In this document: piece after piece, positions 2,396 through 34,655 of the stretch
Layout: each line of letters begins with the position of its first letter
How positions within the stretch are numbered: the stretch's first letter is position 1
Source of the DNA: Candidatus Latescibacterota bacterium
GTDB lineage: Bacteria > Latescibacterota > UBA2968 > GCA-2709665
Direction: 5' to 3'
Assembly (NCBI GenBank): GCA_965237675.1
Contig: OZ250150.1
Coordinates: 2,496,001 to 2,560,000, forward strand
Length of the DNA stretch: 64,000 bases
Program-made: the position numbers and the translations under genes
The notes under the pieces: model-generated
The model's database searches: none
What the model saw: only the letters and a program-made list of their open reading frames with translations
What the model was told of the DNA's origin: nothing

Positions 2396-3052
2396 AAATG
2401 TCTCCCCAGATTTCCAGCACGCCCGGCGTTATTCTCGCAGACCTGCAAGTGCCCACGTAAGTTTGCGAACGCGCAAAGCGCATTTGCGCGGGCTAAAGCT
2501 GGCCTGCTTTCTCAACCAATATTTCGCAGATAGCTGACATGGGATGCCCCCCGCTATTATGGGTAAACGGAAACCAATATAGTTCATTGCGGCGACCAAT
2601 ACAAGATTCGTGACCGTCATTTGCCTGCGCTGGATCGGCGTGAGGAACAGGGGGTTATACGCGTAATTTGCCCGAATTTTCGCATCGAGCTTGCGCCGTC
2701 CTCGTTTGGATTCCGGTCCGCTTGGTCCTAGACGGGTCACGCAGCTCAGAGTGGCGTCCACATTGAGCGTCCAGTCTAAGCTTCCTGCCATTTTCCGAGT
2801 ATTCGCCCCGACTATACGGTTGTAAGATGCGCTGGGTTCGCTGAATCGACCATGTGTCGTTTATCGCGATGCAACGAGCTTTGAGACTTACCGGCGTCTC
2901 AAGTTGCGCTTGTCGCAATTTGCGCCTATCCCTATAATACCGAATACGTGGCTTGTTTTCGCGCCATTCGACTGATTCTTGGGTAGGAACTGCATCCGTT
3001 TGGCACCTGAGTAAATGCGCAAACCGTTGCATTAGGTGGGGCAAGAACGCAA

Positions 3053-6000
3053 ATGATTACCTCAATTTACGCGGCTTTACAAGGCTTCGCGGCGTCAGTA
3101 ACAGCCAAAATGACACAGATCACGGCTGGTGAGCCCGAAGAGCAACTTCGCGGTCCGTTTGAGAACTTCATGAAGGATGCCGCTCAGGCACTCGGATGGA
3201 AAATCGTCTGCACAGGGGAAACACCCCTGCCCGATCGCATCGGTAAGCCCGATTACGCCGTTCATCTCAACCAGCTTCTTGCAGGATACGTCGAGCTAAA
3301 GGCTCCGGGAGTCGGCGCAACGCACGATCGCTTCAAAGGTCACAATCGCGACCAATTCAAGAGGTTTTCGGCAATTCCTAATATTCTGTACACTGACGGC
3401 AATGAGTGGGCGCTATATCGGGACGGCAATCTGGTCGGTAGTGTCGTTCGCTTGGCCGGCGATGTCGCCACAGATGGCAGGAAGGCTGCCAAATTGAGCG
3501 ATGTCCACTCTGTTGAACGCGTGTTGCGCGATTTTCTATCGTGGGAACCGTCCATCCCCGTGGACCGAGACGGCAAGATTGACCTTAAGGGTTTCGCTTC
3601 GTTGTTGGCTCCGCTATGCCGGATGTTGCGCGATGACGTGAAGGATGCGCTTGCAAATCCGAATTCGTCCCTCGTCCGAATTGCGGAAGACTGGCGTAAG
3701 CTGCTGTTCCCTGATGCTTCGGACGAACAGTTCGCCGACGCGTACACCCAGACCGTGGCCTTCGCTCTGCTGTTGGGTCGGAGTGAGGGAGCGAATCCTC
3801 TCACGCTCAACTCTGCGCGGGACTCGCTTGCCGATCAACATGTCCTGCTGTCGGAGACACTATACCTGTTGGCTCGCAAAAAACCCGATAAAGAGATTGC
3901 CGCTTCACTCAAATTGCTGTTGCGTGTTATTGGCGTGGTTCCACCCGCCACGTTGTCAGGTGGCGAGGATCCCTGGCTCTATTTCTACGAAGATTTCCTC
4001 GCCGTATACGACCCCGCACTTCGTAAAGACGTGGGAGTCTTTTATACACCGGTGGAGGTAGTTCGAGCGCAGGTCCGGCTGATTGACGAACTGCTCGTCA
4101 GTCGTGTCGGAAAACCTTTCGGTTTCGCTGACCCCGGCGTGGTGACGCTTGATCCCGCCGTTGGAACCGGAACATACCTTCTTGGTGTAATTGAACACAG
4201 TCTTCGGCGCGTAAGGGCGGAACAGGGGCCGGGCGCGGTCGCCAGCCAAGCCACATCGCTAGGTCAGAACCTCTATGGTTTCGAATTGCTAGTTGGTCCC
4301 TACGCAGTGAGCGAACTTCGCGTTAGCCGTGCCCTTTGTAGTTACGGAGCAACGCTGCCCCGCGACGGTACGCATATCTACTTGACCAATACCCTCGAGA
4401 GTCCGAACGAAGAGCCCCCCTGGATGCCTTTTGTCGTAGAAGCCATTGCCGAACAGCATAAAAAGGCACTCGCGATAAAGAAATCGGTCCCGGTTATTGT
4501 CTGCTTGGGGAATCCACCCTATGACCGGCACGATGCAGTTGATACGAAAAGTGAGGACAATCTTTCCCTGTATGGAGGGTGGGTCCGCTTCGGGGACCCG
4601 TTGCCCGGCAATCTAGTTAAGGATAAAAGGGGCAGGGAACGAGAGCTAAAGACTGCCAAGTCCAGGCTCGCGAAAAGACAGGATCTTGCTATTCTTAAGG
4701 ATTTCATCGCTCCCGCACGTTCGTCCGGGCATGGTGTCCGTCTCAAGAACCTCTACAACCTTTACGTCTATTTCTGGCGTTGGGCATTGTGGAAAGTCTT
4801 CGAGCATGACACTGCCAAGGGTCCTGGCATTATAAGTTTCATCAGCGCGTCGAGCTATCTCGACGGAGACGCCTACTGCGGAATGCGCGAACACATGCGT
4901 CGAGTTTGCGACGAGATCTGGATACTCGACTTGGGTGGCGAAGGGCGGGGCACACGGCAGACAGAGAATGTATTTGCAATTCTTACACCGGTGGCCATCG
5001 CCGTAGCATTCCGTTCGAAAAAAGCTGCAACCGACAAGCCAGCGAAAGTGTGTTACGCCCAAGTTGAAGGAACACGTCAGGAGAAGCTCGCTTTGCTCGA
5101 CAAAATTGAGAGCTTTGCACACTCTATGTTGAAATGGCACGATTGTCCGGACGAATGGCAGGCTCCATTTCGGCCCGCTGGAACAGGCGATTACTTCGCA
5201 TGGCCGCCACTAACTGACATGATGCCTTGGCAACAATCCGGCGTCAAGGCGGGGCGAACCTGGGTGATTGCGCCTGAAACGGGAATGCTAGACGCACGCT
5301 GGGCCGCTTTACTTCGGGTCGAAAAGGACGACCGGCATGAGCTTTTTAAAGATTCTTCCACGGGACGAAAGGTTCACGAATCCGCTACTCAATTGCCGCC
5401 CTCCAAGGTCATGCTAGAACCCATTACCGAACTTGCAAGAGAGGAGCCACCTCCCAAGACAGTTCGTTTCGCATATAGGTCATTCGACCGCCAATTTATA
5501 TGTGCAGACGCCCGTTTGTTGGATAGGCCAGGTCCTGTGCTTTGGCGCGTTCACAGTGAGCAACAGGTTTTCTTGACGAGCTTGCTTAACCATCCGATTA
5601 GCGAAGGTCCTGCGGTAACGGCATGCTCGTATATTCCCGATCTTCACCATTTCCGTGGGTCGTTCGGTGCAAAGGAGATCTTCCCGCTCTTTCGTGCGTC
5701 CGATGGTTCGCGTACGAACATTTCACCTGGCCTACTCGAGATTCTGTGCAGATCATATCAGCGTAACGTCACACCAGAAGATTTCATTGCCTATGTCTAC
5801 TGCACGCTGGCGCATCCAAACTTCACGGCGCGGTTCAAAAACGAACTGGCCACCCGCGAACTTCGCGTACCACTCACGAAGGACATAGAACTGTTCGAAA
5901 AAGCCCGTGCGTTAGGTGCTCGGTTGCTCTGGTTTCACACTTACGGTGAACGATTCATCCCTGACGATCAGCCACGTGGTCACGTTCCCCGTGGTGCAGC

Positions 6001-6442
6001 CAAGTGTGCCAAGGGCGTTCCCCGGGACCCGGAGAGTTACCCAGACACGTTTACATACAGCGACGTGACGCAAATTCTCCGCGTCGGCGAGGGTGAGTTT
6101 AAGCCGGTTCCGCCCGAGGTATTCGAGTTTGAGGTTTCGGGCCTCAAGGTCGTACAGTCTTGGCTCAAGTATCGGATGAAGAGAGGAGCGGGTCGGAAAT
6201 CCTCACCCCTGGACGAAATTCGCCCAGAACGGTGGACCAGCCAATTTACCACTGAACTACTCCACTTGCTTTGGGTTCTGGAGGCGACGGTGGAAAATTA
6301 TCCCGATCAGGCGCGGCTACTTGAAGCCATTGTCGAAAGCGACTGCTTCAGTGCCGACGAATTACCTAGCGTTCCAGACGAAATGCGCAAACCGCCAAAG
6401 GCCATTAAGGGCGATCTGTTTTACGGGCAGAGCGGAGATTGA
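3053..6442 (+). CDS. Single-chain restriction-modification enzyme (N6-adenine MTase, Type ISP-like C-terminal specificity domain, no helicase)
   Basis: N-terminal PD...ELK nuclease (KPDYAV...YVELK), GVFYTP, SAM motif DPAVGTG, catalytic GNPPY, and YRSFDRQ and FEVSGLKVVQSWLKYR typical of Type_ISP_C. Confidence 0.88.
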   Translation: MITSIYAALQGFAASVTAKMTQITAGEPEEQLRGPFENFMKDAAQALGWKIVCTGETPLPDRIGKPDYAVHLNQLLAGYVELKAPGVGATHDRFKGHNRDQFKRFSAIPNILYTDGNEWALYRDGNLVGSVVRLAGDVATDGRKAAKLSDVHSVERVLRDFLSWEPSIPVDRDGKIDLKGFASLLAPLCRMLRDDVKDALANPNSSLVRIAEDWRKLLFPDASDEQFADAYTQTVAFALLLGRSEGANPLTLNSARDSLADQHVLLSETLYLLARKKPDKEIAASLKLLLRVIGVVPPATLSGGEDPWLYFYEDFLAVYDPALRKDVGVFYTPVEVVRAQVRLIDELLVSRVGKPFGFADPGVVTLDPAVGTGTYLLGVIEHSLRRVRAEQGPGAVASQATSLGQNLYGFELLVGPYAVSELRVSRALCSYGATLPRDGTHIYLTNTLESPNEEPPWMPFVVEAIAEQHKKALAIKKSVPVIVCLGNPPYDRHDAVDTKSEDNLSLYGGWVRFGDPLPGNLVKDKRGRERELKTAKSRLAKRQDLAILKDFIAPARSSGHGVRLKNLYNLYVYFWRWALWKVFEHDTAKGPGIISFISASSYLDGDAYCGMREHMRRVCDEIWILDLGGEGRGTRQTENVFAILTPVAIAVAFRSKKAATDKPAKVCYAQVEGTRQEKLALLDKIESFAHSMLKWHDCPDEWQAPFRPAGTGDYFAWPPLTDMMPWQQSGVKAGRTWVIAPETGMLDARWAALLRVEKDDRHELFKDSSTGRKVHESATQLPPSKVMLEPITELAREEPPPKTVRFAYRSFDRQFICADARLLDRPGPVLWRVHSEQQVFLTSLLNHPISEGPAVTACSYIPDLHHFRGSFGAKEIFPLFRASDGSRTNISPGLLEILCRSYQRNVTPEDFIAYVYCTLAHPNFTARFKNELATRELRVPLTKDIELFEKARALGARLLWFHTYGERFIPDDQPRGHVPRGAAKCAKGVPRDPESYPDTFTYSDVTQILRVGEGEFKPVPPEVFEFEVSGLKVVQSWLKYRMKRGAGRKSSPLDEIRPERWTSQFTTELLHLLWVLEATVENYPDQARLLEAIVESDCFSADELPSVPDEMRKPPKAIKGDLFYGQSGD

Positions 6443-6585
6443 GGCGGCCACGTGCTTTTTGTTCCGATAACTTGCTAACGATCGAAATCGGCTTGGGAGG
6501 GGTGGTTACAAGCAAGCGATTTTTTTGAATTCTTTTTTTCGATCAGGCCTTATTGACTGCGGATATCAAGAGAGGGTCAAACGAA

Positions 6586-7638
6586 ATGGATGACTCGACC
6601 GAGAAAGACCAGAATAACGGCGAATCTCTGACCGAGCGAGAAATGCGAGGCTTGGAGACGACCTTGAGGAGTTCGAGGGCATTTGAAGCGTTTCAACGCT
6701 GTGCGCGTGAGCTTCAACGTATTTCGCACACCAAGGATTTCGGAAAGAACCAACGACGCTTGTCCGACGTCGAAGCCGAAGCGAAAGTGTGGCTCGATTC
6801 TGTCGGATGTGCCGAAGCAGCCGGAGTTTTAAACCCGAGTTATCGCTTTTTGCTTACGTTGTACCCGATTGAACGTGTTCACGATGAACGTTGGCTCGGC
6901 GGTTTGTACGAATCCGACCTCTGCGACATCAAGGCGGGCATTGAGGCCATACGTGAGCGCGAGGGCCTAGATGATGACGAGTACTGGCCCATCGGGGAGG
7001 GACCGGAGGATTGGGAGGAATTGGAACAGCGATATTCAGGGGTCTTGGATAGGAAGTTTGAAGAGACGCTTCGGGAATTCGGCATTCACGAAATCGCTGA
7101 TCTATACCAAATGGACCGAGAAGCATTCGACGCGCAACGTGAGCAGGGGCGTCGGCTCGCCTTTGAGGAAATTTCCGAGACGGAACAGGTCTATGCCGCC
7201 CAGAAACTGCTTGAAGTAGAGGCCGAAAAATGTGCCAAGGGAGGGGCATATTATGCCGCAAACGTCATGATCGGGTCCGCAATGGAGGCTGCTCTCTTGA
7301 CTGCATGTCTGAAGCACCTTGACGAAGCTCTTTCTGCCAAGGATCGATTGCCGAAATCTGAGCAGCCCGAACGAGAGAATCCGAAGCGCTGGCGATTCGC
7401 GGAACTGGCACGCATAGCAACTGAGGCGGGATGGCTGCCGGATTTTGTAGTAGGGGATCGTAGGGTGTGCTCCCAATCGCTCGTGGAAACGTTGCGATGC
7501 GTGCGAAACTTGGCACATCCTGCTAAACACCTATCTGACCCATTATCCCTTGATGTAGAAAGTGAATATACCAAAGCGCGAGCCGCGTACAATCTACTTG
7601 AGCGGTATTTGGCTGGGCCTGCCAACGAGTCCCCGTAG
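6586..7638 (+). CDS. Hypothetical protein with a C-terminal HEPN/DUF4145-like helical domain
   Basis: Long intact ORF. GAYYAANVMIGSAMEAAL followed by RNLAHP matches the HEPN-like signature. ATG 6586 was chosen over TTG 6553. Confidence 0.55.
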   Translation: MDDSTEKDQNNGESLTEREMRGLETTLRSSRAFEAFQRCARELQRISHTKDFGKNQRRLSDVEAEAKVWLDSVGCAEAAGVLNPSYRFLLTLYPIERVHDERWLGGLYESDLCDIKAGIEAIREREGLDDDEYWPIGEGPEDWEELEQRYSGVLDRKFEETLREFGIHEIADLYQMDREAFDAQREQGRRLAFEEISETEQVYAAQKLLEVEAEKCAKGGAYYAANVMIGSAMEAALLTACLKHLDEALSAKDRLPKSEQPERENPKRWRFAELARIATEAGWLPDFVVGDRRVCSQSLVETLRCVRNLAHPAKHLSDPLSLDVESEYTKARAAYNLLERYLAGPANESP

Positions 7639-7739
7639 CTGCGACGTTTTACGAATCGATTCACAGTAAGATAATTTGGAAAGGGAAGCCCAACGTATCA
7701 ACAAAAGGTGAAATATCTTTCCCTCCGAGTTTGGCTTAG

Positions 7740-7958
7740 AATGGACATGGCGTCGAGGAGCATGAAGTCGAAGACGTATTGAGATCGCCGGGTGAAGACA
7801 GACCCGGACGGGAAGGATGGCGTGTTGCAATCGGACGGACTCGCGGCGGTCGTTATTTCCGCGTGATCTATGTGCCCGATACCGAGCCGGACTATGTTTT
7901 CGCCATCACTGCATACGAGCTGACCGGAAAACCCCTAATCGCATATCGTAGGCGATAA
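7740..7958 (+). pseudogene. 5'-truncated BrnT/RelE-fold toxin
   Basis: The frame reads GHGVEEHEVEDVLRSPGEDRPGREGWRVAIGRTRGGRYFRVIYVPD...VFAITAYELTGKPLIAYRRR*. An in-frame TAG lies at 7737-7739 and there is no start codon before the HGV motif. Confidence 0.65.
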
Positions 7959-7969
7959 AGGAGAGAAAG

Positions 7970-8170
7970 ATGAAGAACGCGACGAGGTTTCCGAAAGGTT
8001 GGGACAAAGAACGTGCCAATCGTCTCCTGCAACATTACGAATCACAGACGGAGGACGAGGCGGTGGCGGAAGATGAGGCCGTCTTGGAGGATAAAACGCA
8101 AACGGTGATGGAAATCCCCAACGCGTTGGTACCCTCAGTCAGAGCGCTATTATCGCAACACGTCGAGTAA
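7970..8170 (+). CDS. Small putative antitoxin (FPxGWD...HYExQTEDEAVAEDEA family)
   Basis: RBS AAGGAG; 11 bp downstream of the toxin remnant; acidic 66 aa protein. Confidence 0.65.
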   Translation: MKNATRFPKGWDKERANRLLQHYESQTEDEAVAEDEAVLEDKTQTVMEIPNALVPSVRALLSQHVE

Positions 8171-8666
8171 ACCGCACGTGTTTCTCCCGATCCCGTAGTA
8201 TCCCACCAATCAATTCCCCGCACCGTCGGAGTATCTTTGCCTGTATTTGATTAGATCCTCGTAAATCACTGCATCCGATGGCACCAGTTGATACGGCTTC
8301 CGCCACCACCAGTCCGAATTACAGATCGCTCATGCGATGCACCGGTGCGTTCGTAAGGTACAGACGACCATTACGGCGGGCAGGGTTCGCAGTCACCCGC
8401 TCGCCACAGAGGGTTGGAGAACAGCGCATCGAACAGATTTCCCTTGACTCGAAGCGGTTCTTGAAGTTCCTTCCTTATCTGGCGAATGAACTCCGTTTGT
8501 GCAGTTTGCGGTTGGCATTGTGCATTGTGATTTCGCGAAATTGAGTCGTCCCGTTCACTCCACTTCCAGGCGCGAGGAAGGAAGAGCAAAGTCGGATGTT
8601 CTTCAGTATTCCGGCGTCTGTACTTCGAGGGCGAGGAAACGGGTTTTTTGTTTACCTCGGGATTTT

Positions 8667-10301
8667 ATGCAGTCCATATCAGAGTTTCTAAGCGGAAAGA
8701 CGCTGTTTGTCACCGGTGCGACGGGGTTTCTGGCGAAGGGATTCGTGGAGAAGATCCTGTTTTCCGCGCCGGAGGTGGCGCGGATCTATCTCCTGATCCG
8801 GCCGCGGTCGCGTTCCAAGGGCCAACGGGTTTCCGAAACGGAACGGCTGGAGTCGGAAGTCCTTCAGTCGCGCGCGTTCGCAAGGTTGAGGACGAGGTGG
8901 GGCGCGGCGTTTCCTTCGGTCATGGCGGACAAGGTCATCGCGGTCGCCGGCGATCTGACCGAAGACGGACTGGGGATTTCCTCCGCGCAGCGCGAGCGTC
9001 TGGTCGAAGAAGCGGATTTCGTTGTCAACTACGCCGGCACCGTGGTTTTCGACGAACCCATCGACAGTGCGCTCGAACAGAATACAATGGGCGCCGCCCG
9101 GGTCGTGGCCTTCGCAAAAACCTGCCGGAAAGCCGCGCTCGTTCACGTGTCAACCGCGTACGTGAGCGGACAGCGGACCGGCCGGATTTCCGAGGCTCCG
9201 TTCCCCACTGACCGAAGCGTGGCGGATCTCATCAACGGAAGCGCGGCCGGGTTCGACCTGCAGGGAGAGATCGATGCCATTCGCGCCTTTGCCGACGAGG
9301 TGCGGGCGTCTTCCCGGCGGCCGGAACTGGAGGCGGCGTTCCTGAAACAACTCAGGCGTCAGGACCGGGGCAAACGCGTGACCGACTACCGGAAAGCGCA
9401 CCAGGTCGAGGCCCTTCGCCAGCGCTGGATCCGGAAGCAGTTGGTGGACGAAGGGATGCGCCGGGCGCGGCGGCTGGGTTGGAACGACAGTTACACGCTC
9501 ACCAAGGCGATGGGTGAGCAGTTGATCGTGAAGTCGCGGGGAGAACTTCCAACGGCCATCGTCCGGCCGGCGATCGTGGAAAGCAGCCTCGAGGATCCTG
9601 AGCCGGGCTGGGTGGAGGATCTGAAAGTGGCCGATCCCCTGATCGTCCACTACGGCAAAGGCCGGCTGTCGAATTTCCCCATCGATCCGGGGATCGTGCT
9701 GGATATTATACCCGTGGACGTGTTGAACAACGCCGTCACGGCGGTTCTTCCGCAGATACGCCGATCTGGGGAGATCAAGGTCTACCAGGTGGCCTCGGGT
9801 TCGCAGAATCCGGTGCGGGCGGGTGAAATTGTCGAACTGGTTTACGGGTACTTCAAAACCTCGCCCATGCAGGACCGGGACGGGCGGCCTATTGAAGTCC
9901 GGCCCTGGCAGTTCATCAGCAGGAGACGATTCTTCTGGATCGTTGTCTGGAAATACAAGCTTCCGCTGAGCCTTTTGAAGGCGGCCGTGGATTATTTGCC
10001 CGCCCGATGGTTTTCCCGTTACCGGCGGCGGGTTTCCGGCATGGAGACCATGCTGGAAAGGCTCGAGTCCCTGGTCGATATATATTGCGGGTACACCCAT
10101 CTCGACTGCGAATTCGAAACGGAGAATACCCGCCGGCTGTTCCAGGCGCTGAATCCAGAGGACCAGAAGGTTTTCAACTTCGACGTGACGCGCATTAACT
10201 GGCGGAAATATATCCAGGAGATTCACATTCCGGGATTAAAACACCACGTATTGAAAGAGGGGGACGGAGCGGTTTCCGTGTTAACCGCCGAAGCCGATTG
10301 A
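8667..10301 (+). CDS. Alcohol-forming fatty acyl-CoA reductase (NAD_binding_4 plus Sterile domain)
   Basis: TGATGFLAK, HVSTAYV, catalytic YTLTK, IVRPAIV, DIIPVD and C-terminal FNFDVTRINW match the FAR/Male-sterility family. Confidence 0.9.
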   Translation: MQSISEFLSGKTLFVTGATGFLAKGFVEKILFSAPEVARIYLLIRPRSRSKGQRVSETERLESEVLQSRAFARLRTRWGAAFPSVMADKVIAVAGDLTEDGLGISSAQRERLVEEADFVVNYAGTVVFDEPIDSALEQNTMGAARVVAFAKTCRKAALVHVSTAYVSGQRTGRISEAPFPTDRSVADLINGSAAGFDLQGEIDAIRAFADEVRASSRRPELEAAFLKQLRRQDRGKRVTDYRKAHQVEALRQRWIRKQLVDEGMRRARRLGWNDSYTLTKAMGEQLIVKSRGELPTAIVRPAIVESSLEDPEPGWVEDLKVADPLIVHYGKGRLSNFPIDPGIVLDIIPVDVLNNAVTAVLPQIRRSGEIKVYQVASGSQNPVRAGEIVELVYGYFKTSPMQDRDGRPIEVRPWQFISRRRFFWIVVWKYKLPLSLLKAAVDYLPARWFSRYRRRVSGMETMLERLESLVDIYCGYTHLDCEFETENTRRLFQALNPEDQKVFNFDVTRINWRKYIQEIHIPGLKHHVLKEGDGAVSVLTAEAD

Positions 10302-10428
10302 CCGGCCTGTGGGCGTTGGAGGTTCAAGGTCGTCAACGGTCGTAGATTCCCGTGATCGGGACGCGTCCGGGGCGTTTCGGAACCGGGGGCGGGCGGGCTT
10401 CCGGCTCTTTTTTTGGGACTGTGGACGT

Positions 10429-12369
10429 ATGGATCGAAATCAATCGGTTCCCGTGCACAAGATGCTGGTGCAGGATCCGGCACGGCTGTGTATCGCATAC
10501 GACCAAGCCGCCGCGGAACTGATCGCGGCCGTGACGCCCGAGGGCTATTTCGAAGGGTGGGCGCCCGAGGATCTGACGTGGCCGGCCGGCGGCCCCGAAG
10601 AGATCGGACTTGAAGGACTGGAAAAGCGGGCGCGGATCGTGAACGCGATTCACCAGGGCGTTCCGGCGCTGCGAGACAGGCGTTTGAAGGAGGCCCACGC
10701 CAATTTCGACGAACTGACACCCGCGTACCACGAAGGCAGCAGAATCTACCTGCGGCTGCAGGATCAGTTCGTGTCCACGGGCGCGGGCACGGCACGGGAT
10801 TTTCTCAAGCGCTACCAATCTCTGTACGTGGAGGCGCTGGCGAAGGGGGACGATTTTTCGCCTGACATGGGCGAGACGTCCCTCGCGGAAGCCCGGATCT
10901 CCCGGGTGCCGTTGTCCCACGCCAGGGCCGTGGCGGAAGCGCTTTCCCGCGTGGCGATGGACGACGATCCTCTTTGGGAGGCCGAATACGTCTGTACGGT
11001 GGATGGAACAACGTGGAAGGGATCCCTTCGGAAACTCCTGGAAGACGTGGCTGCGCGGACGTTGCACTACATTGCCGCCGGAGAGCTTCTCGCCACGCGC
11101 TACAATACGTACAACAACCTGGGATGGTTCGGCAGTTCGGTGTGGAAGGTGGTCGCGGAAGCCGATGTCCTGCTGTGCCGGATGGAAGAAATTGATCCCG
11201 CTCGCTTGGCGGCCCTTAAGGCGGACGTGGCCCTGGGCCAGAGCATGCTGGTGGAGTTTCTGGCGGCCCACCGGGAAGATCCCTCCCGGCTCAGGCCGGA
11301 GAATTACTGGTACGGGCAGCCGTACAGTTATCTGACGCGGGATATGGTCGACCTGAGCGCCCGAATCGTAGATGGCGTGAATACGGTGGTACGAGAACGG
11401 GACGGGTTGACGGATATGGCGCTCCCTCCCCTGCTGGCCGGCACCCGGACCGGTCGGTTTCTGGACTACGCTCACGTGGGAAAAACGGAGGAACTGACGT
11501 CCTTTCGGCGCAAGCTCCGGATGTTGCGGTGGGCAAGGTGCTGCTGGCGGGTGGGGAAACGCAGGCGACGGATCGCGGAGGAGGATCTCGCGCCGTCTCT
11601 CAGGCACCAGCGTGCGTGGGACGTCTGGCTGGCGTGGTCCCGGGATACGATGGATGCGTTCGGCATCCGCCTGGATGTGACCGTGGCCCCCATGTTTCGC
11701 ACGCTCGTTCGGGAAATGGACCTTTCCGGTGGCGGTCAGAAGATTCTGTTCCTGCCCTCGCACCAGAGCATGCTGGAGCATTTCGTGGTGTTTTCGGTGT
11801 TCAACGATCCGGTGTTTCTGGATGCCATGGGATGGGATCGTTCCCGCCCGGTGGTACAGTTGGCCCGCACGGGTCTGGCGAAGTCGACGTCGGTGAAGAT
11901 CGGATCCCGCGAGATCAGTATCTTCGGTATGTCTCCCGACAAGTTCGACCGGATGTTCGAGACCGTCGACGGCTTCATCACTCGAGACAGCGTGGATATC
12001 TCATCCCATACGATTCCGCGCATGCTGCAGGAGATGGAACACCGCCCGGGTCTGATCTATCCGATGGGCACAACGGCTTCCTTCGACGTGCAGTTGTTTC
12101 CGCTGCAACACGCTTTGTTTGCGAAACTGCCCCAGGACGTCGTGATGATTCCCATCGCCTTTCGCGGCAGCCATTCGCTCTGGCCAAAGTGTCCGGCGCG
12201 TAATCTGAATATCAATCCAGGTGTGATCGAGGCGGTGATCTTACCACCTATGCCAGGCGAGACCACGTTGCTGCCTCGCCGCCGGTCCCTGCGAATCCAG
12301 CTGGAGGCCGCCAATCTGCTTCAGGCGGTCCATATATCGAATTTGCTGAATCCGGAACCGTCGCAATGA
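10429..12369 (+). CDS. Uncharacterised N-terminal domain fused to a divergent glycerolipid acyltransferase (LPLAT/PlsC fold)
   Basis: The C-terminal third has LFLPSHQSMLE (HX4E variant of HX4D), LIYPMGT (variant of FPEGT) and MIPIAFRG. Confidence 0.65.
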   Translation: MDRNQSVPVHKMLVQDPARLCIAYDQAAAELIAAVTPEGYFEGWAPEDLTWPAGGPEEIGLEGLEKRARIVNAIHQGVPALRDRRLKEAHANFDELTPAYHEGSRIYLRLQDQFVSTGAGTARDFLKRYQSLYVEALAKGDDFSPDMGETSLAEARISRVPLSHARAVAEALSRVAMDDDPLWEAEYVCTVDGTTWKGSLRKLLEDVAARTLHYIAAGELLATRYNTYNNLGWFGSSVWKVVAEADVLLCRMEEIDPARLAALKADVALGQSMLVEFLAAHREDPSRLRPENYWYGQPYSYLTRDMVDLSARIVDGVNTVVRERDGLTDMALPPLLAGTRTGRFLDYAHVGKTEELTSFRRKLRMLRWARCCWRVGKRRRRIAEEDLAPSLRHQRAWDVWLAWSRDTMDAFGIRLDVTVAPMFRTLVREMDLSGGGQKILFLPSHQSMLEHFVVFSVFNDPVFLDAMGWDRSRPVVQLARTGLAKSTSVKIGSREISIFGMSPDKFDRMFETVDGFITRDSVDISSHTIPRMLQEMEHRPGLIYPMGTTASFDVQLFPLQHALFAKLPQDVVMIPIAFRGSHSLWPKCPARNLNINPGVIEAVILPPMPGETTLLPRRRSLRIQLEAANLLQAVHISNLLNPEPSQ

Positions 12370-12459: not shown

Positions 12460-14307
12460 ATGACTGACTGGGGAATTGCAGCGGTTGCCGTAGCGGTTGT
12501 TCTCGCGGTAGCGCTTCTGGCGAAACGGAGGCGATCCGAAAGCGAACCGGACGCTTTTTTCGATCATTCCGAAGCGGAACGATTCCCCCACAAGTGGGGA
12601 TATACGGATACGAGGTTCGAGTTCGTAGACGACCGGACAGTGAGGGTAACCGGGAGCCGGTACCCGATTTCGGGATACCGGATGCCGTTTCTGGTCGCCT
12701 TTGTGGAGGACGTGCTGGGCATTGCGATCCGAAGGGAAGACTCGTACGAAGAGCGTGAGGATACCGGAACGCCGGAGCCGAACGTGGAAGCAGCTTTCGG
12801 TAACGCGGTGAAAGAACGGTTCAGAGAAGGGCAGGTTTCGTTCGATCCCAAAGCCAGGCTGGTGCACAGCCACGGACAGCTGAGTGTTGAGGAAGTGTAT
12901 CGCGTGATGTATGGAGATTCACTTCCGCGTCTGGTCGATCTGGTGTTCTATCCGGAGGATGAGGCCGACGTCAAGGCCATGATCGAATTGGCCAACGAGC
13001 ACAATGTCTGCCTGGTGCCGTACGGTGGGGGGACCAATGTGAGCGGGGCGCTGGCGTGTCCGCCAGACGAGCGGCGCACGATCGTTTCCGTGGATATGCG
13101 TCGGATGAACCGGGTGCTGTGGATTGACGAGGCGAATCTGCAGGCCTGCGTCGAGGCGGGTATTTCGGGAAAGGAACTCGAGCACGTGCTCGGTGAGCGG
13201 GATTACACGTCGGGGCACGACCCGGATAGCGTGGAACTGTCCACGATGGGCGGGTGGATTTCGACCAATGCCAGCGGGATGAAGAAGAACCGGTATGGCA
13301 ATATAGAAGACATCGTGCTCGAGGCGACGCTGGTGACGCCCACCGGCGAAATCGCGACCCGCCGGGTGACGCCCAGAAACTCGACGGGTGTCCAGCCCAG
13401 GGTGTTTTTGTTCGGCAGCGAGGGCAATTTCGGCATTATCACCTCGGCGGTGATCAAGATTCATCCGATCCCCGAGGCGCGTAAGTACGGGGCGCTTGTT
13501 TTTCCGGCCTTCGAGAAGGGCGTGGAATATTTGAAGGCGCTTCGGCAGACCGGAATGCTGCCGGCGAGCATCCGCCTGGTCAACAACAACGAATTCAGGT
13601 TCGGGCAGGCACTGAAACCGGAGCCGACATTTTTAAAGGGCGTCAAAGACCGGATCCAGAAGTTCGTTCTGATAAAGGTCCTGGGTTTCGATCCGGAGAA
13701 GATGGCGGCATGTACCATCGTGATGGAAGGCACGCACGATGAAGTGCGCCAGCAGGAACGCACGATCTTCAGCCTGGCGAAAAAATACGGCGCCAAGAGC
13801 GCGGGCGCGAGCAACGGCAAGCGGGGATACTCGCTCACGTTCGGGATCGCCTATATTCGAGACTTCCTGAATCAGTACGGCATTCTTGGCGAGACATTTG
13901 AGACGTCTGTCCCATGGGATCGGGTTCATCAGGTGTGCGATGCGGTATCCGGCGAACTGGTTACGCAGGCCGGCAGCTACGGCGTCCCCGGAAATCCCTA
14001 TCTCTCGTACAGGGTGACGCAGACCTATCATACCGGAGTCTGCATCTATTTTACGATGGGCATTTACGGCAAGGGCCTTGATCGGCCCGGCCGGGTGTTC
14101 CACGCGATCGAACACCGGCTGCGTCAGGTGATTCTGGACAACGGAGGCTCCTTGTCGCACCATCACGGCGTTGGCAAGGTGAGGCGGGAATTCCTGCCTC
14201 AGATTCAGACCGATAACAGCATCCAGGTCATGCGCCAGGCGAAGAACGCGATGGATCCGAAGAACATCTTTGGGATACGCAACGGCGTTTTTGGGGGAAC
14301 TGACTGA
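12460..14307 (+). CDS. Alkyl-dihydroxyacetone-phosphate synthase (AGPS-like FAD enzyme) with an N-terminal membrane anchor
   Basis: KWGYTDTRF, PYGGGTNV, GHDPDSVELSTMGGW, ASGMKKNRYGNIED, IAYIRD, ETFETSVPWD, RVTQTY and GSLSHHHGVGK all follow AGPS motifs in order. Confidence 0.9.
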   Translation: MTDWGIAAVAVAVVLAVALLAKRRRSESEPDAFFDHSEAERFPHKWGYTDTRFEFVDDRTVRVTGSRYPISGYRMPFLVAFVEDVLGIAIRREDSYEEREDTGTPEPNVEAAFGNAVKERFREGQVSFDPKARLVHSHGQLSVEEVYRVMYGDSLPRLVDLVFYPEDEADVKAMIELANEHNVCLVPYGGGTNVSGALACPPDERRTIVSVDMRRMNRVLWIDEANLQACVEAGISGKELEHVLGERDYTSGHDPDSVELSTMGGWISTNASGMKKNRYGNIEDIVLEATLVTPTGEIATRRVTPRNSTGVQPRVFLFGSEGNFGIITSAVIKIHPIPEARKYGALVFPAFEKGVEYLKALRQTGMLPASIRLVNNNEFRFGQALKPEPTFLKGVKDRIQKFVLIKVLGFDPEKMAACTIVMEGTHDEVRQQERTIFSLAKKYGAKSAGASNGKRGYSLTFGIAYIRDFLNQYGILGETFETSVPWDRVHQVCDAVSGELVTQAGSYGVPGNPYLSYRVTQTYHTGVCIYFTMGIYGKGLDRPGRVFHAIEHRLRQVILDNGGSLSHHHGVGKVRREFLPQIQTDNSIQVMRQAKNAMDPKNIFGIRNGVFGGTD

Positions 14308-14684: not shown

Positions 14685-15491
14685 ATGTTCGACGGAAAGA
14701 TCGTTGCGATAACCGGAGCGTCGTCGGGTCTGGGCGCCACGCTGGCGCTGGCGTTCGCGGAATATGGAGCCGATCTGGCACTGTTCGCGCTGGACGAGGG
14801 TGTACAGGACACGGCGGCGCGTTGCCGGGAGCGGGGCGGCCGCGTGATTACGGCCACGGGCGACGTTGGAAAACCCGAGGACTGCGAGGCGTGGATCGGC
14901 GCGGCCGTTGCCGAGTTCGGGGCCGTGGATTATCTGATCGCGTGCGCCGGGATCAGCATGTGGGCCAGGTTCGACGAGGTGGAGGACCTGGGGATTTTCC
15001 GCAGGTTGATGGACACGAACTATCTGGGTATCGTGCATTGCGTGTATTACGCGCTGCCCCATCTGAAAGCGCGCGACGGGATGGTGGTGGCGATATCGTC
15101 CATTCAGGGCAAGATCGGCGTGCCCATGCACACGGGATACGTGGCCTCCAAGCATGCCGTGCAGGGGTTCTTCGAGTCGTTGCGGACGGAGTTGCTCGAC
15201 ACCGGCGTGGACGTGCTTACGGTGCTGCCACACTGGCTGCGCGGGACCAATTTGCGCAAGGCGGCCTTCGGAAAGGACGGCGGCTCCCTGGGCCCGTCCA
15301 GCCGAAAGCACAGCAGGGAGTCGATTTCGCTGGACGACGCCTGCAAAGCCATCATCGAGGCCATGAAAAAGAGGAAGCGGGAACTGATTATTCCGTTCAA
15401 GCTCCGTTTTCTGCCCTGGCTGCACCTGATCCATCCGAAGATCGTCGAATACCTGGTAACGCGAGGCGTGGCGAAACAGGAGAAGGGTTAA
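14685..15491 (+). CDS. Short-chain dehydrogenase/reductase, DHRS7B-like
   Basis: TGASSGLG, catalytic S (ISSIQGK) and YVASK. Confidence 0.9.
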   Translation: MFDGKIVAITGASSGLGATLALAFAEYGADLALFALDEGVQDTAARCRERGGRVITATGDVGKPEDCEAWIGAAVAEFGAVDYLIACAGISMWARFDEVEDLGIFRRLMDTNYLGIVHCVYYALPHLKARDGMVVAISSIQGKIGVPMHTGYVASKHAVQGFFESLRTELLDTGVDVLTVLPHWLRGTNLRKAAFGKDGGSLGPSSRKHSRESISLDDACKAIIEAMKKRKRELIIPFKLRFLPWLHLIHPKIVEYLVTRGVAKQEKG

Positions 15492-15537: not shown

Positions 15538-16227
15538 TCAGGAAAAGAGTCCATCCACGTCCAGGTGTTGTTCAATCAATTCGGGCATGCATCCAAGGTC
15601 GCCGGCGTCCACGTCCACGCCGGAATCGTAGGGCAGGATGCCGAGGGACGGAATTCCGGAGACGCGGAAGATCACGTCCGGGCTGGTGCGGGCGGCGCGC
15701 GGATCGCCGTCCCGGGTGGTATTGTAGACGACGCCTCTGACCTCCAGGTTGCGCTTTTCAGCGGCTTCGAGCGTCAGCAGGGTGTGATTGATCGTGCCTA
15801 ATTCGGCGCGGGCGACCACCAGCAGGGGCAGGCCCAGCCGGCCCGCGAGGTCCGCGACCATGACATCATCCCGAATCGGAACCAGCAGGCCGCCCACGCC
15901 CTCCACGAGAACGGTTTCGTGAAGGGTTGCCAGGCGACGATAGGCATTGACGATGGGTTCCAGGTGGACGTGGCGACCTTCCAGTTCGGCTGCCACGTTG
16001 GGCGACAGCGGCGCGGCGAGGCGCACGGGGTTGATCAATTCGAGGGAATCGGAGACGCCCGCGGCATTCTTGAGGAATCGCGCGTCGGTTGTGCCGCCGG
16101 ATGAGACCGGCTTGAACACGCCAACGTCAACCCCGCGGCCGCGAAGGACGGCGGCGAGACCGGCGGTCACGGCGGTTTTGCCCGCACCCGTGTCGGTGGC
16201 GGTGACGAAGAATCCCCTGGGTCGCAT
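15538..16227 (-). CDS. bioD: Dethiobiotin synthase
   Basis: TATDTGAGKT, FKPV, LVEGVGGLLVP and LGTINHTLLT. Confidence 0.95.
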   Translation of the reverse strand: MRPRGFFVTATDTGAGKTAVTAGLAAVLRGRGVDVGVFKPVSSGGTTDARFLKNAAGVSDSLELINPVRLAAPLSPNVAAELEGRHVHLEPIVNAYRRLATLHETVLVEGVGGLLVPIRDDVMVADLAGRLGLPLLVVARAELGTINHTLLTLEAAEKRNLEVRGVVYNTTRDGDPRAARTSPDVIFRVSGIPSLGILPYDSGVDVDAGDLGCMPELIEQHLDVDGLFS

Positions 16228-16310
16228 TTTCAATGTGTCTCCGGAAGCGGGGCGAACCCGTGCAGTCGCGCCCGGGGGTCTCTTTCAGGCCGCCGACAGG
16301 CGGCTTCTGA

Positions 16311-17678
16311 TCAGGCGGGGCCGGTTACGGCTCGAATGGATTCGCAGGCGATATCCATCAGTTTTTCGAGATCGCCGCTGGAGATAGCAAGGGGTGGCAT
16401 GAGCACGATGGTATCGCCGAGCGGGCGGATGAGGAGGCCCCGTTTTCGGGCTTCGCCGCAGACACGGACGCCGACCCGGTCCCCCGGAGGATAGGGACGG
16501 CGGCAGGATTTATCGGCAACCAGTTCGATCCCGGCAATAAAGCCGCACTGCCGCACGTCGCCCGCGTGGGCGAGGGGCTCGAAACGGGCGAGTCGGCGCG
16601 CGAGGAGATCGATCTTGGGCCGCAGGGACGCGAGCACGTTCTGGCTTTCAAAGCGCTCGATGGCGGCCAGGGCCGCGGCGCAGCCGAGGGGATTGCCCGT
16701 GTACGTGTGGCCGTGGAAAAACGTCCTGCCTTCGGTGTCGTCGCCCAGAAAGGCATCGAAGATGTCACTGGTGGCCAGTGTGACGGCCACGGGAAGGTAT
16801 CCGCCGGTGATGCCCTTGCCCAGGCAGAGGATGTCCGGCGCCACGTCTTCTTTCTCGCAGGCGAACATGGCCCCGGTGCGGCCGAAACCGGTGGCGATTT
16901 CGTCGGCGATAAGCAGGACGTCGTGCGCCCTGCAGAGGTCGGCGATCCCCTTCAGATAGCCTTCCGGATGAACCAGCATACCACCCGCGCCCTGGATGAG
17001 CGGTTCGACAATGAAGGCGGCGATGCGGTGCGCGTCCCGCCTGAGGATGTCTTCCGCCGCCCGGAGGCAGCCCTGGCTGCAGCCGGCGTCTCTGTTGCAG
17101 AACCCGCATCGGTAGGGGTGAGGCGCGGGCGCGTTCAGCGAAGGGAAGAGGAGGGGGCCGTAGGTCTCGTGGAAGAGATCGATGTTGCCGACGCTCATCG
17201 CGCCGATGGTGTCGCCGTGATAGCTCCGGGCGAGGCTGAGGAAGGTTGTTTTTTCGGGTCGCGGATCCGGCTTCTGTCGCCAGTACTGGAAGGCGATCTT
17301 GAGGGCGATTTCCACGGCGCAGGCGCCGGTGTCCGAGTAGAACACGTGGCTGAGCCCGGCCGGGGTGATTTCCACGAGTTTTTCGGCCAGCCTGATCGCG
17401 GGTATGTTGGAAAGACCGAGGAGCGTGCTGTGGGCGACCTGGTCCAGCTGCCTGCGTATGGCGGCGTCGATTTCCCCGACACGGTGGCCATGGACGTTGC
17501 ACCACATGGACGAATAGCCGTCGAGGTACCGGTTACCGTCGATGTCCTCCAGGTAGACGCCGTCCCCGCGCGCGATGACAATGGGGTCCTCGCGTGCGTA
17601 CGTGCGCATCTGGGTGAACGGGTGCCAGACGATGCGGCGGTCCAGGTCTTTGAGGCGGGCCTTGTCTTCGGGGGACAT
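16311..17678 (-). CDS. bioA: Adenosylmethionine-8-amino-7-oxononanoate aminotransferase
   Basis: WHPFTQM, SYHGDT, DEIATGFGRTG, PLP lysine in LGKGITGG, and HGHTYTGNP; adjacent to bioD. Confidence 0.95.
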   Translation of the reverse strand: MSPEDKARLKDLDRRIVWHPFTQMRTYAREDPIVIARGDGVYLEDIDGNRYLDGYSSMWCNVHGHRVGEIDAAIRRQLDQVAHSTLLGLSNIPAIRLAEKLVEITPAGLSHVFYSDTGACAVEIALKIAFQYWRQKPDPRPEKTTFLSLARSYHGDTIGAMSVGNIDLFHETYGPLLFPSLNAPAPHPYRCGFCNRDAGCSQGCLRAAEDILRRDAHRIAAFIVEPLIQGAGGMLVHPEGYLKGIADLCRAHDVLLIADEIATGFGRTGAMFACEKEDVAPDILCLGKGITGGYLPVAVTLATSDIFDAFLGDDTEGRTFFHGHTYTGNPLGCAAALAAIERFESQNVLASLRPKIDLLARRLARFEPLAHAGDVRQCGFIAGIELVADKSCRRPYPPGDRVGVRVCGEARKRGLLIRPLGDTIVLMPPLAISSGDLEKLMDIACESIRAVTGPA

Positions 17679-22604: not shown

Positions 22605-22645
22605 AAGAAGCCTTGCCGAAATGCCGGGGCCGGGCTTCTTGTTGT
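22605..22645 (+). terminator. Possible terminator hairpin after pgi
   Basis: Inverted repeat AAGAAGCC...GGCTTCTT followed by GTTGT. Confidence 0.35.
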
Positions 22646-22715
22646 GTCGCCCTTTCGATCTGATTATCTTGACGGCACACACGGGGTTTATCAAAAGGAA
22701 AAAAGGAGCGGAACA

Positions 22716-24896
22716 ATGGTGGTTGAGATCGGCGGCTTGAGGGTCGAAGAGATCCTGTACAATCTGGTCAGAGATGAGATTGCGCCGGGTACGGAAGTGG
22801 ATCCCGATACTTTCTGGACGTCGCTGGGAGAGATCGTGCGGGACCTGGGCGCCACGAATCGGGAGTTACTGAAACGGCGGGACGTTCTTCAGGAGAAGAT
22901 GGACGCCTGGTACCGGGCGCGGAAGGGCCGTCCGGCAGACCCGGAAGAGTACCGGGCGTTTTTGACGGAAATCGGCTATCTGGTACCGGAGGGGGACCAT
23001 TTTGAATTGACCACGGCCCATGTGGATCCGGAAATCGCAAGCGTGGCCGGACCTCAACTCGTGGTGCCGGTGGATAACGCCCGGTATGCGCTGAATGCGG
23101 CCAACGCGCGGTGGGGAAGCCTGTACGACGCCCTATATGGGACGGACGTGATTCCCGAGGGTCCCGGCGCCGGGAAGGGCGAAAGCTACAATCCGGCCCG
23201 GGGGGAACGGGTGATTGCCTCGGCCGAGGCGTTTCTGGACAAGGCTGCGGGTCTGGCTTCGGGTCGGTTCTCGGAGGCCACGGGTTTTGACCTGGAGGAC
23301 GTGGACGGTGTCAAGCGACTCGTTGTGACGTTGGGAGGGGGCCGCCAGACTGGCCTGGCGAATCCCGGACAGTTCCGCGGATATCGGCTGGACGACGGCG
23401 AACTGGCAGGTGTGTTGCTTGAGAACAACGGGCTGCATATCGAGATTCAGATCGACCGGAGCCATCCCGTGGGCGCCGCGCATCCGGCTGGTGTCAAGGA
23501 CGTGGTGATGGAGGCTGCGGTGACAACCATCCAGGATTGCGAGGATTCCGTTTCGGCCGTGGACGCGGAGGATAAGGCGCGTGTGTACGGGAATTGGAAC
23601 GGCATCATGCGGGGGACGCTGGAGGCGATCTTCGAGAAGGGCGGACGGGAGATGACGCGGCGGCTGAACCCGGACCGGACGTTCACGTCGCCCGATGGAG
23701 AGACCCTGACCCTGGCCGGACGCAGCCTCCTTCTGGTGCGAAACGTTGGCATTCATATGTACACCGATTCTGTGACCACCAGCGATGGGGAGGAGATTCC
23801 CGAGGGGTTTCTGGACGCGATGGTGACGGCGCTTGCGGCCAAACACGATCTGGGGCGACAGGGCGAATTCGTCAACAGCCGTGCGGCAAGCATCTATATT
23901 GTGAAGCCGAAACTGCACGGCCCGGAGGAGGTGTCGGCAACTGTCGCCCTGTTCCAGCGCGTGGAATCCGCCCTGGGACTCGAGCGAAATACAATCAAGA
24001 TCGGCATCATGGACGAAGAGCGAAGAACCACGGTGAATCTGAAGGCGGCGATCGGAGAGGCAAGAGAGCGGGTGGTGTTTATCAATACCGGCTTTCTCGA
24101 CCGCACCGGGGACGAGATCCATACGGGCATGGAAGCCGGCGCAATGTTTCCCAAGGCGGAAATCAGGGCGCAGCCCTGGCTTGCGGCGTACGAGGATTGG
24201 AACGTGGACGTGGGGGTGGAAACCGGGTTCAGCGGCCGCGGCCAGATCGGGAAGGGGATGTGGACGATGCCGGATGAGATGCGTGACATGGTGGCGACAA
24301 AGATCGGGCATCCGGAAGCGGGGGCGAGTACGGCGTGGGTGCCATCCCCCACGGCGGCGGTTCTGCACGCGATGCACTACCATCGCGTGGACGTGGCGGC
24401 GAGGCAGGCGGAACTGGCCCGGCGGGAGCGGGCGAGTCTGGAGGCGATTCTGACGCCGCCGCTGCTGGACAGGGCGTTGACGGCCGATGAGATTCAGCGC
24501 GAACTGGACAACAACGTCCAGGGGATACTGGGTTACGTGGTGCGGTGGGTCGACCAGGGTGTGGGTTGCTCGAAGGTGCCGGATATCAACGACGTGGGAC
24601 TGATGGAGGACCGGGCGACGCTGCGCATTTCCAGCCAGCATATCGCCAACTGGCTGCATCACGGGATCGTGAGCGAAGCGCAGGTGCGGGCGGCGTTCGA
24701 GAGAATGGCCGGAATGGTGGACGAGCAGAACAGCGGGGATCCGGACTATCGGAACATGGCGCCCGACTTCGAGCGAAGCGTCGCATTTCAGGCCGCGCTG
24801 GACCTGGTTTTCGAAGGCAGGGCGGAGCCGAACGGCTATACCGAACGCGTGTTGCACCTGCGGCGCAGCGAGGTCAAAAAAAGCGGTGAGAGGTAA
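22716..24896 (+). CDS. glcB: Malate synthase G
   Basis: [57 protein letters not shown] and [14 protein letters not shown]; RBS AAGGAG. Confidence 0.97.
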
Positions 24897-32373: not shown

Positions 32374-32504
32374 TGGCGAGACACGCAGCAATGAGACAAG
32401 GGCCCGGGAAGATCGAAGCGGGCCCTTTCGTTATGTCCACTCAGGGAAGCAGGCGAAGCCGATTCTTTTGATGATCCGAATGCCTGCACATAAAGTTGCT
32501 GCAA

Positions 32505-33473: not shown

Positions 33474-33554
33474 TTTCAATTATACCGTTATCAATTCTCT
33501 TCAGTTCGTGCCTGCCTGATTTTCCCTGTTGACTGGAGGCTTTTAGATTACCGG

Positions 33555-34493: not shown

Positions 34494-34655
34494 AGCATCC
34501 TCCTTCTAGTCCTGTATCCCACACAGGCGTTTGCGTATTCGTTCGAGATTCCAGTGGATCGATCTTGCGGTTGCGGTCCGGACGAGTGGCCTGGTCTCCT
34601 CGTAGTCGTTGTCGGTATAGGATCGGATTCTGTCCACGAGTTCCAGGACGGATCA

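Follow-up and report, generated by a model that had tools for sequence, protein, structure and literature searches.

A divergent PlsC-fold acyltransferase family in ether-lipid gene clusters of Latescibacterota, a candidate for the first, dihydroxyacetone phosphate-dependent acylation step

Introduction

GpsA is the normal source of sn-glycerol-3-phosphate (G3P) from dihydroxyacetone phosphate (DHAP), and the substrates of alkyl-DHAP synthase (AGPS) are acyl-DHAP and a fatty alcohol. The known eukaryotic acyl/alkyl-DHAP reductases are short-chain dehydrogenases (SDRs), and DHRS7B is reportedly, going by the title of one paper, the enzyme of this reductase step. Here we analyze a 64,000-nucleotide stretch of a Candidatus Latescibacterota genome (GCA_965237675.1, contig OZ250150.1, positions 2,496,001 to 2,560,000, forward strand; hereafter the window), and in it the gene at positions 10429-12369 (+), whose 646-amino-acid (aa) acyltransferase product we label X. 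According to reviews, bacteria reach lysophosphatidic acid (LPA) in two ways, through PlsB or through PlsX/PlsY (PMC13691511). Of 92 Latescibacterota metagenome-assembled genomes (MAGs) from the Black Sea, 67 reportedly carry Agps homologues (PMC11868695), and a 2026 preprint describes the phylum as not previously linked to ether-lipid capacity (10.64898/2026.06.23.733905); the available text of both reports homologues of agps and elbD from MAGs of the phylum and does not mention the gene for X. A further preprint defines GNPAT, the eukaryotic-type acyltransferase of this pathway, by PANTHER PTHR12563, and its available text holds 0 mentions of Latescibacteria (10.1101/2025.10.10.681575).

The operon and the proposed role of X

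X is the product of the second gene of an operon with the order FAR, X, AGPS, SDR. Its coordinates in the window are as follows.

8667..10301, forward strand: FAR, fatty acyl-CoA reductase, gene 1 (NAD_binding_4 9.4e-63, Sterile 2e-16)
10429..12369, forward strand: X, two-domain acyltransferase, gene 2 (translation, 67 full-length homologues, AlphaFold2 model)
12460..14307, forward strand: AGPS, gene 3 (PDB 4bby_A, E 2.5e-152 over residues 44-608)
14685..15491, forward strand: SDR of 268 aa, gene 4 (adh_short 2.2e-43)

On balance we favor the reading of X as a highly divergent yet active PlsC/GPAT-fold acyltransferase with a fused helical domain, which carries out the first (sn-1) acylation on DHAP and feeds AGPS, with the SDR reducing the product. 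The parts of this reading differ in strength: X is very probably active as a glycerolipid acyltransferase and probably performs the first acylation, and the case for DHAP as its acceptor is close to evenly balanced, tilting slightly in favor, with a dual DHAP/G3P enzyme fitting the data equally well. The fold with its conserved His-x4-Asp/Glu, the operon and the phyletic pattern are shown by the analysis. In the proposed route, X would acylate DHAP at the first (sn-1) glycerolipid step and the acyl-DHAP would pass to AGPS, where the acyl group would be swapped for the fatty alcohol supplied by FAR. The SDR, a candidate acyl/alkyl-DHAP reductase, would convert alkyl-DHAP, and probably also acyl-DHAP, by reduction into the sn-glycerol-3-phosphate form, a single ordinary PlsC would acylate sn-2, and in this Latescibacterota class the route would replace GpsA plus PlsX/PlsY.

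An earlier sequence-only reading of the window had proposed a non-orthologous DHAP acyltransferase between FAR and AGPS. The position holds, with NAD_binding_4 and Sterile domains upstream and the match to 4bby, which is mammalian AGPS, downstream; the AGPS product also matches FAD_binding_4 and FAD-oxidase_C. The SDR had not been listed by that reading. X runs from ATG 10429 to TGA 12369; its longest frame begins at GTG 10309, and we take the ATG as the start because 646-aa full-length relatives match from there with 100% coverage. The longest FAR frame opens at GTG 8499, and Met57 at 8667 is the likelier start since the alignments of more distant relatives begin at query residue 54-57 and the median length in the neighbor cluster is 544 aa. 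We also observe, in the translation, that AGPS residues 5-21 (window 12472-12522) are hydrophobic and followed by KRRR, resembling a membrane anchor, and that a terminator-like hairpin (8 pairs, 6 of them G-C) followed by a T-run lies at 10383-10413 (+), between the FAR stop at 10301 and the start of X. Such hairpins are not enriched in the window (6 found versus a mean of 8.0 expected in shuffled sequence).

Distribution of X and of the conventional enzymes

The genome that contains the window (5.6 Mb in 3 contigs, 99.93% complete, 8% contamination) holds a single PF01553 gene, a 261-aa PlsC with HVSYTD and SPEGTR. Hidden Markov model (HMM) searches of this genome returned no PlsY, PlsX, PlsB (profile TIGR03703) or GpsA; the same models matched in 8, 9, 2 and 10 of 14 control genomes, respectively. 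Likewise, tblastn searches of it with PlsY, PlsX and GpsA from a sister family gave nothing better than E 0.35, and the gene flanking plsX in that sister-family genome, used as a control, matched at 4.7e-75. Since no GpsA, PlsX/PlsY or PlsB is found, X plus the SDR would form the only visible route to 1-acyl-G3P. The proposal of a non-orthologous DHAP acyltransferase is thereby strengthened: the genome has AGPS and one PlsC, lacks PlsB, PlsX, PlsY and GpsA by these searches, and carries an SDR in the operon. CarF/PEDS1 (PF10520) had no match in the genome, and the control for this search likewise matched in no genome.

All phyletic counts refer to a single set of 151 sampled genomes from the phylum. 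The family of X hardly extends beyond one Latescibacterota class, and X occurs in 115 of these genomes; AGPS occurs in 108, the SDR, which tracks AGPS, in 105, PlsY and GpsA in 29 each, and PlsX in 35. X and AGPS are found together in 107 genomes, with X only in 8, AGPS only in 1 and neither in 35. X and PlsY, by contrast, share a single genome (G025), with X only in 114, PlsY only in 28 and neither in 8, and the cross-table of X against GpsA gives the same four numbers. Three of the 35 PlsX genomes also hold X, two of them with PlsX over the cut-off. PlsY and GpsA occur in 0/114 genomes of families f1-f4, where X occurs in 112/114, and most genomes from families that lack X have them; plsY and gpsA can also form a pair in a sister family, as on contig C499 of G029 (gpsA 1981-2406, plsY 2982-3524). 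Five further X genomes reached from the loci hold GpsA in 0/5 and PlsY in 2/5, so that GpsA was not found in 119 of the 120 X-bearing genomes searched. Two genomes (G025, G157) have full-length PlsY matches, yet X still lies within a FAR-X-AGPS-SDR cluster.

A single PlsC of 223-286 aa is common to X-bearing and PlsY-bearing families. In families f1 and f2 there is mostly one PF01553 gene, and X is the only candidate there for making acyl-DHAP. We prefer DHAP over G3P alone as the acceptor because AGPS needs acyl-DHAP, GpsA was not found, the PlsY genomes keep X in the ether-lipid cluster, and all but 8 of the 115 X genomes also carry AGPS. An extended form of this proposal is that the whole class dropped GpsA, PlsX/PlsY and PlsB and makes all its glycerolipids by a eukaryote-like acyl-DHAP pathway in which X makes acyl-DHAP, AGPS converts much of it to alkyl-DHAP and one SDR reduces both. 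The membranes of these widespread uncultured bacteria would then consist largely of 1-O-alkyl ether lipids, produced with no GNPAT homologue. We regard this as possible but tentative.

X as a sequence family

We count 67 homologues at E ≤ 2.9e-146; their identity ranges from 38 to 90%, their length from 465 to 674 aa, and almost all are unnamed or called "hypothetical protein". An exhaustive phmmer search of 1.84 billion representatives matched 51 proteins, 7 of them end to end (607-665 aa) and 44 as pieces of ≤370 aa. There was no ordinary PlsC among these 51 matches, which indicates that the family is narrow and isolated. Relatives of X are encoded by 129 of 135 pattern-matched genome stretches; 80 of the 129, most of them labelled Latescibacterota, were kept for the locus counts below, and invariant columns refer throughout to an alignment of 27 sequences (A1). 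One source labels a relative, P0036, "1-acyl-sn-glycerol-3-phosphate acyltransferase". The literature that we searched holds no description of the family; supplementary tables lay outside that search (Table S8 of PMC11868695, supplementary table 2 of 10.64898/2026.06.23.733905) and may list these genes or their neighbors.

PF01553 does not match X at E ≤ 10, either as a whole or with the C-terminal 229 aa, and X does not reach the gathering cut-off of that family (23 bits; one relative scores 21.4 bits). The same model does match 9 of 27 relatives at E ≤ 0.1, with a best value of 8.9e-8. No acyltransferase among the PDB sequences matched X alone or the 27-sequence profile, and the human GPAT1 entry 8e4y was not returned at E ≤ 10 by phmmer or by the family profile against PDB sequences. 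An hhalign comparison of the family profile with the genome's own PlsC is weak (E 0.13) and covers blocks III-IV only, where it pairs YPMGT with SPEGT and MIPIAFRG with VVPVYISG.

We found no joining open frame between X and FAR or between X and AGPS in the 80 loci. One 1250-aa protein on a single contig (P0122) was considered as an X-AGPS fusion and rejected: it leaves the X family after the block III region, continues through a stretch rich in Arg, Pro, Ala and Gly into AGPS Pfam domains, and is read as a frameshifted gene call. In one locus (L039, 4348-9777), FAR, X and AGPS follow each other in the same frame with single stops between them (4348..5979, 5980..7929, 7930..9777). A genome search gave open frames of 1265-1269 aa in G058, G073 and G076, of the same genus; in L039, which coincides with the place in G073, X and AGPS are divided by a TGA despite that report.

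Fold and catalytic motifs

The AlphaFold2 model of X, built from the family alignment (pLDDT 87.1, pTM 0.90), has the fold of the acyltransferase superfamily (PlsC/GPAT, LPLAT, AGPAT) in its C-terminal half. Residues 356-646 superpose on T. maritima PlsC (5kym_A, residues 1..247) with Z 18.3 and a root mean square deviation of 3.5 Å over 232 of 241 residues at 11% identity, and Foldseek returns the same chain at E 1.9e-4 with probability 1.00. The next matches are human GPAT1 (8e4y, Z 12.7) and the plastid GPATs (8ia1_A, 11.2; 1iuq, 10.8; 1k30, 10.4). Structure prediction and Foldseek for both halves, which the sequence-only reading had suggested, thus yield a PlsC-type fold for the C-terminal half and no specific match for the N-terminal half. 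The features of the C-terminal half are listed with their window coordinates.

11494..11664, forward strand: basic two-helix motif, residues 356-412, equivalent of the PlsC N-terminal two-helix motif
11665..12366, forward strand: alpha/beta acyltransferase core, residues 413-646 (the part matched to PlsC)
11761..11781, forward strand: block I, HQSMLEH (H445, E450, H451), with H445 and H451 invariant
11860..11874, forward strand: putative block II equivalent, LARTG, in which invariant R480 ends strand 476-480
12058..12075, forward strand: block III, YPMGTT, residues 544-549 (hhalign to SPEGTR of the genome's PlsC)
12148..12168, forward strand: block IV, IPIAFRG, residues 574-580 (weak hhalign; alignment A1)

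The two-helix motif (helices 358-384 and 389-410) holds 15 K+R against 6 D+E and may bind the membrane; X has no transmembrane-like segment, its most hydrophobic 19-mer reaching a Kyte-Doolittle (KD) value of 1.25. In the core, the motif register is canonical, with strand 438-443 before H445, strand 541-543 before P545, and strand 571-579 carrying IPIAFRG. The superposition, this strand register, the weak hhalign match and the PF01553 matches of relatives are the grounds on which the strings are read as blocks I and III; LARTG is the likely block II equivalent by its position in the fold. At and after block IV, R579, G580, H582, W585, P586, C588 and P589 form an invariant stretch.

The sequence-only reading had pointed to HQSMLE (residues 445-450) and YPMGT (544-548) as altered catalytic motifs, and both strings are present in the translation, as are the two N-terminal segments that it quoted (see below). 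Block I is the catalytic His-x4-acidic motif, with Glu replacing Asp in the window. This alteration does not extend to the family: the residue four after the block I His is D in 63 of 80 relatives and E in 16, with no pattern match in one. In a maximum likelihood tree with 79 rows, the HX4E sequences group together as a clade of 15 that contains the window's X (SH-aLRT 99) and lies inside the HX4D sequences, which makes the Glu-for-Asp change a single, conservative and derived one. The further proposal, that loss of the block III Glu may shift specificity toward DHAP, is not supported by the comparison of relatives. The third position of block III is M in 41, E in 17, A in 16, V in 2, T in 2 and Q in 1 (none in 1), and a residue that is not conserved cannot be a specificity switch for the family. 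Even where Glu occurs, block III reads YGEGTT, with no Arg after it, as in the YPMGTT of the window; T548 is invariant.

The failed Pfam thresholds, together with Glu for Asp and Met for the block III Glu in the window, would fit an X that has lost catalysis and serves the ether-lipid enzymes as a scaffold or regulator. We give this scarcely any credence, since the catalytic His is invariant, the acidic residue is kept as D or E in 79 of 80 relatives, and the core is the most conserved part of the protein (mean majority fraction 0.67; 28 of 234 columns invariant). In addition, the Glu of HX4E is catalytic in the active relative LpxM, according to the available text of PMC6286764 and the title of PDB entry 5knk.

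X could be an sn-2 acyltransferase for 1-O-alkyl-G3P or other lysolipids, with the small PlsC-like protein taking the first step: the structure nearest to X is the LPA acyltransferase PlsC, the label of P0036 names that activity, and an alkyl-LPA acyltransferase would be plausible in an ether-lipid operon. Fold likeness leaves the acceptor unfixed, however, and the single-copy PlsC of the X and PlsY families is the likelier conserved sn-2 enzyme; where X occurs, it is PlsX/PlsY that are missing, not PlsC. An sn-2 role therefore seems distinctly unlikely to us.

Linkage across related loci

FAR lies directly upstream of X in 47 of the 80 loci, AGPS downstream in 40 and the SDR after AGPS in 35. 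Among the FAR-linked loci, 3 end too early for AGPS to be judged and 4 have no AGPS within at least 2 kb. The upstream position of FAR, these last 4 loci and the 99%-complete G008, which has FAR-X and in which AGPS was nowhere found, would suit an enzyme that esterifies the fatty alcohol of FAR, an alcohol acyltransferase of the wax-ester type. Such a role would leave the absence of PlsX, PlsY and GpsA unexplained and the AGPS of f1 and f2 without its acyl-DHAP substrate, and X also occurs without a detected FAR homologue (G141) and in 33 loci without FAR nearby; we consider it very unlikely.

Points that weigh against a DHAP acyltransferase

Several observations count against the reading of X as a DHAP acyltransferase that feeds AGPS. 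To begin with, we infer the catalytic activity, the sn-1 position, the DHAP acceptor, the acyl donor, the role of the SDR and any role of the N-terminal domain from models and genomic context. X and its separate halves match nothing in Pfam or NCBIfam even at E ≤ 10. The canonical block III is F-P-E-G-T-R, and the Arg after GT is absent in X.

Linkage is also incomplete. No FAR lies within 6 kb of X in 33 of the 80 loci, and AGPS is found in none of these, 2 of which end too early downstream. The tree splits by linkage, with 46 rows that all have FAR and 33 rows without FAR and AGPS. The sequence-only reading had named missing linkage of the homologues to AGPS among the points that would tell against it, and the outcome is mixed: this part of the family is unlinked, but AGPS is downstream in half of the loci (40/80), and 107 of 115 X genomes hold both genes. 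The unlinked clade corresponds to family f3, and in 3 complete genomes of that clade AGPS is encoded elsewhere; in G001, the one of them whose AGPS surroundings were inspected, the SDR adjoins it. FAR homology in these 3 genomes lies inside an open frame of 1424-1450 aa, and in G001 (= G139; C1:2394760-2398764) that frame combines FAR homology (40% identity to the FAR of the window) with a PF01553 domain. Such FAR plus acyltransferase frames, of 1400-1480 aa in f3 genomes, are ElbD/FARAT-like and could supply acyl-DHAP there instead of X.

AGPS was not found in 8 of the 115 X genomes, including 4 of the 5 of genus g20 and G008, and looser searches (E ≤ 1e-20 in G106, G108, G114, G141 and G008; E ≤ 1e-30 in G004 = G132) returned generic FAD oxidases or nothing. 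Six of these 8 (g20, g25, G008) are without the SDR too. X must act there in the absence of the proposed reductase, and G3P or some other acceptor would suit this better. The genome of the window encodes a glycerol kinase (672 bits, over the cut-off), and G3P is therefore not unobtainable. A genome of family f14 (G020, 96% complete) is without X, PlsX, PlsY and GpsA alike, which means that absence of PlsX/PlsY/GpsA alone does not demand X; it carries a 1449-aa open frame with PF01553 plus a small PlsC and may represent a further lineage in which lipid synthesis begins unconventionally. Finally, the phyletic pattern comes down in essence to a single event at class level, with a few more besides, and related genomes are not independent.

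A rival reading takes X as a glycerol-3-phosphate acyltransferase only, a replacement for PlsB/PlsY, with acyl-DHAP coming from another enzyme or a side activity. X persists in genomes in which neither AGPS nor the operon SDR was found, its complementarity with PlsX/PlsY needs just such an enzyme, and glycerol kinase is there to provide the acceptor. Set against this are the near-complete absence of GpsA from X genomes, the lack of any other acyltransferase in f1 and f2 to make acyl-DHAP for a conserved AGPS, and the PlsY genomes that still hold X inside the ether-lipid cluster. We judge an exclusive G3P specificity unlikely, and retain the first acylation of DHAP as the favored reading.

The N-terminal domain

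The N-terminal part of X contains the following features (window coordinates).

10429..11493, forward strand: N-terminal domain, residues 1-355, modelled as a bundle of long helices with one beta-hairpin (186-199)
11098..11139, forward strand: conserved motif RYNTYNNLGWFGSS, residues 224-237, with N226, N230, W233 and G235 invariant
11305..11346, forward strand: conserved motif YWYGQPYSYLTRDM, residues 293-306, with W294, Y295, Y299, Y301, L302, T303, R304 and D305 invariant

The domain modelled alone reaches a pLDDT of 87.7, and it is under strong constraint, since 37 of its 355 columns are invariant in the 27 sequences. The sequence-only reading had announced a novel N-terminal domain of about 400 aa. 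No known match emerged, in keeping with that claim; the size is about 355 aa because helices 358-384 and 389-410 correspond to the PlsC two-helix motif. A structure search against 48,161 chains gave Z 9.6, 9.3 and 8.3 at best, all to de novo designed helical bundles, where the noise level for helical proteins is roughly Z 13. Foldseek found no match at E ≤ 0.001 (best E 0.076, TM 0.27, SmhA), and residues 1-350 had no usable match in the ESM Atlas. These blanks, obtained with a predicted model, do not establish a new fold.

Long GNPAT extensions in protists have been described as degenerate FAR domains (10.1101/2025.10.10.681575, available text). A degenerate FAR domain was considered for X as well and rejected, the model being all-helical with no Rossmann-type or NAD_binding_4 match. 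The idea that the domain scaffolds FAR and AGPS also fared poorly: its invariant motifs are kept in the unlinked clade and in genomes where AGPS was not found.

Other features of the window

Upstream of the operon, 3053-6442 (+) encodes a Type ISP restriction-modification-like enzyme (Type_ISP_C 9.5e-74, N6_Mtase 1.2e-5), followed at 6553-7638 (+) by a 361-aa open reading frame with no Pfam match. Both lie in lower G+C (0.51-0.54 versus 0.59-0.65 further on) and may form an island; a second lower-G+C stretch (0.51-0.55), with negative GC skew, spans 32001-42000. Downstream of the operon are opposite-strand genes of biotin type, namely a dethiobiotin-synthase-like gene (15538-16233, -; AAA_26 1.7e-54) and a class III aminotransferase (16311-17678, -; 5.5e-102), and further on a malate synthase G-like gene (22644-24896, +). 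All three are ordinary-looking.

Significance

X is a new family in a known superfamily, with a pathway implication that is unusual for bacteria. The sampled genomes of one bacterial class show neither of the described routes to LPA, nor GpsA, and hold a conserved unannotated acyltransferase family instead; the literature searched, supplements apart, describes no bacterium that is without PlsB, PlsX/PlsY and GpsA together. If X is a DHAP acyltransferase, it would fill the enzyme gap in the AGPS-type ether-lipid pathway of bacteria that have no GNPAT or FARAT, Latescibacterota would be likely producers of environmental alkylglycerol ether lipids, and the DHAP route would have arisen with an acyltransferase other than the one shared by eukaryotes and myxobacteria.

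Comparison with known systems

PlsC is the closest described structure. X shares with the T. maritima enzyme (5KYM) the whole-chain fold, including the two-helix motif, the His-x4-acidic motif after a strand and the order of blocks II-IV. The two differ in that X has only 11% identity and no sequence-level match to it, adds a 355-aa helical domain and, in the window, has a block III without Glu; the genomic evidence favors the first, not the second, acylation for X.

With GNPAT and GPAT1, X has in common the superfamily fold (8e4y, Z 12.7) and the proposed reaction, transfer of an acyl group to DHAP for AGPS. GNPAT keeps canonical blocks I and III, unlike X in the window. The searches against PDB sequences detected no homology between them, the catalytic domain of X is C-terminal and nearer to PlsC, and its helical domain is without a counterpart. 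Mammalian GNPAT, at about 680 aa, is of similar length (10.1101/2025.10.10.681575, available text).

The FARAT of Myxococcus xanthus (MXAN_1675), in which FAR is fused to GNPAT and whose operon also holds AGPS (MXAN_1676), offers a parallel in gene content: FAR, acyltransferase, AGPS and an NAD-dependent reductase-like gene stand together as in the operon of X (10.1101/2025.10.10.681575, available text). In X, by contrast, no FAR domain is fused N-terminal to the acyltransferase: FAR is a separate gene, the N-terminal domain is helical and not Rossmann, and the acyltransferase is of a different family.

PlsX/PlsY and PlsB share with X the proposed role, the first acylation of the backbone, and in the 151 genomes X and PlsY hardly ever occur together. 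PlsY, which uses acyl-phosphate, is an enzyme integral to the membrane (PMC13691511, available text), whereas X is unrelated in sequence and has no predicted transmembrane segment. Finally, LpxM/LpxL belong to the same superfamily, and LpxM shares with X the HX4E motif, whose Glu it requires (PMC6286764, available text); the substrate class differs and the structural likeness is weak (5knk, Z 6.0).

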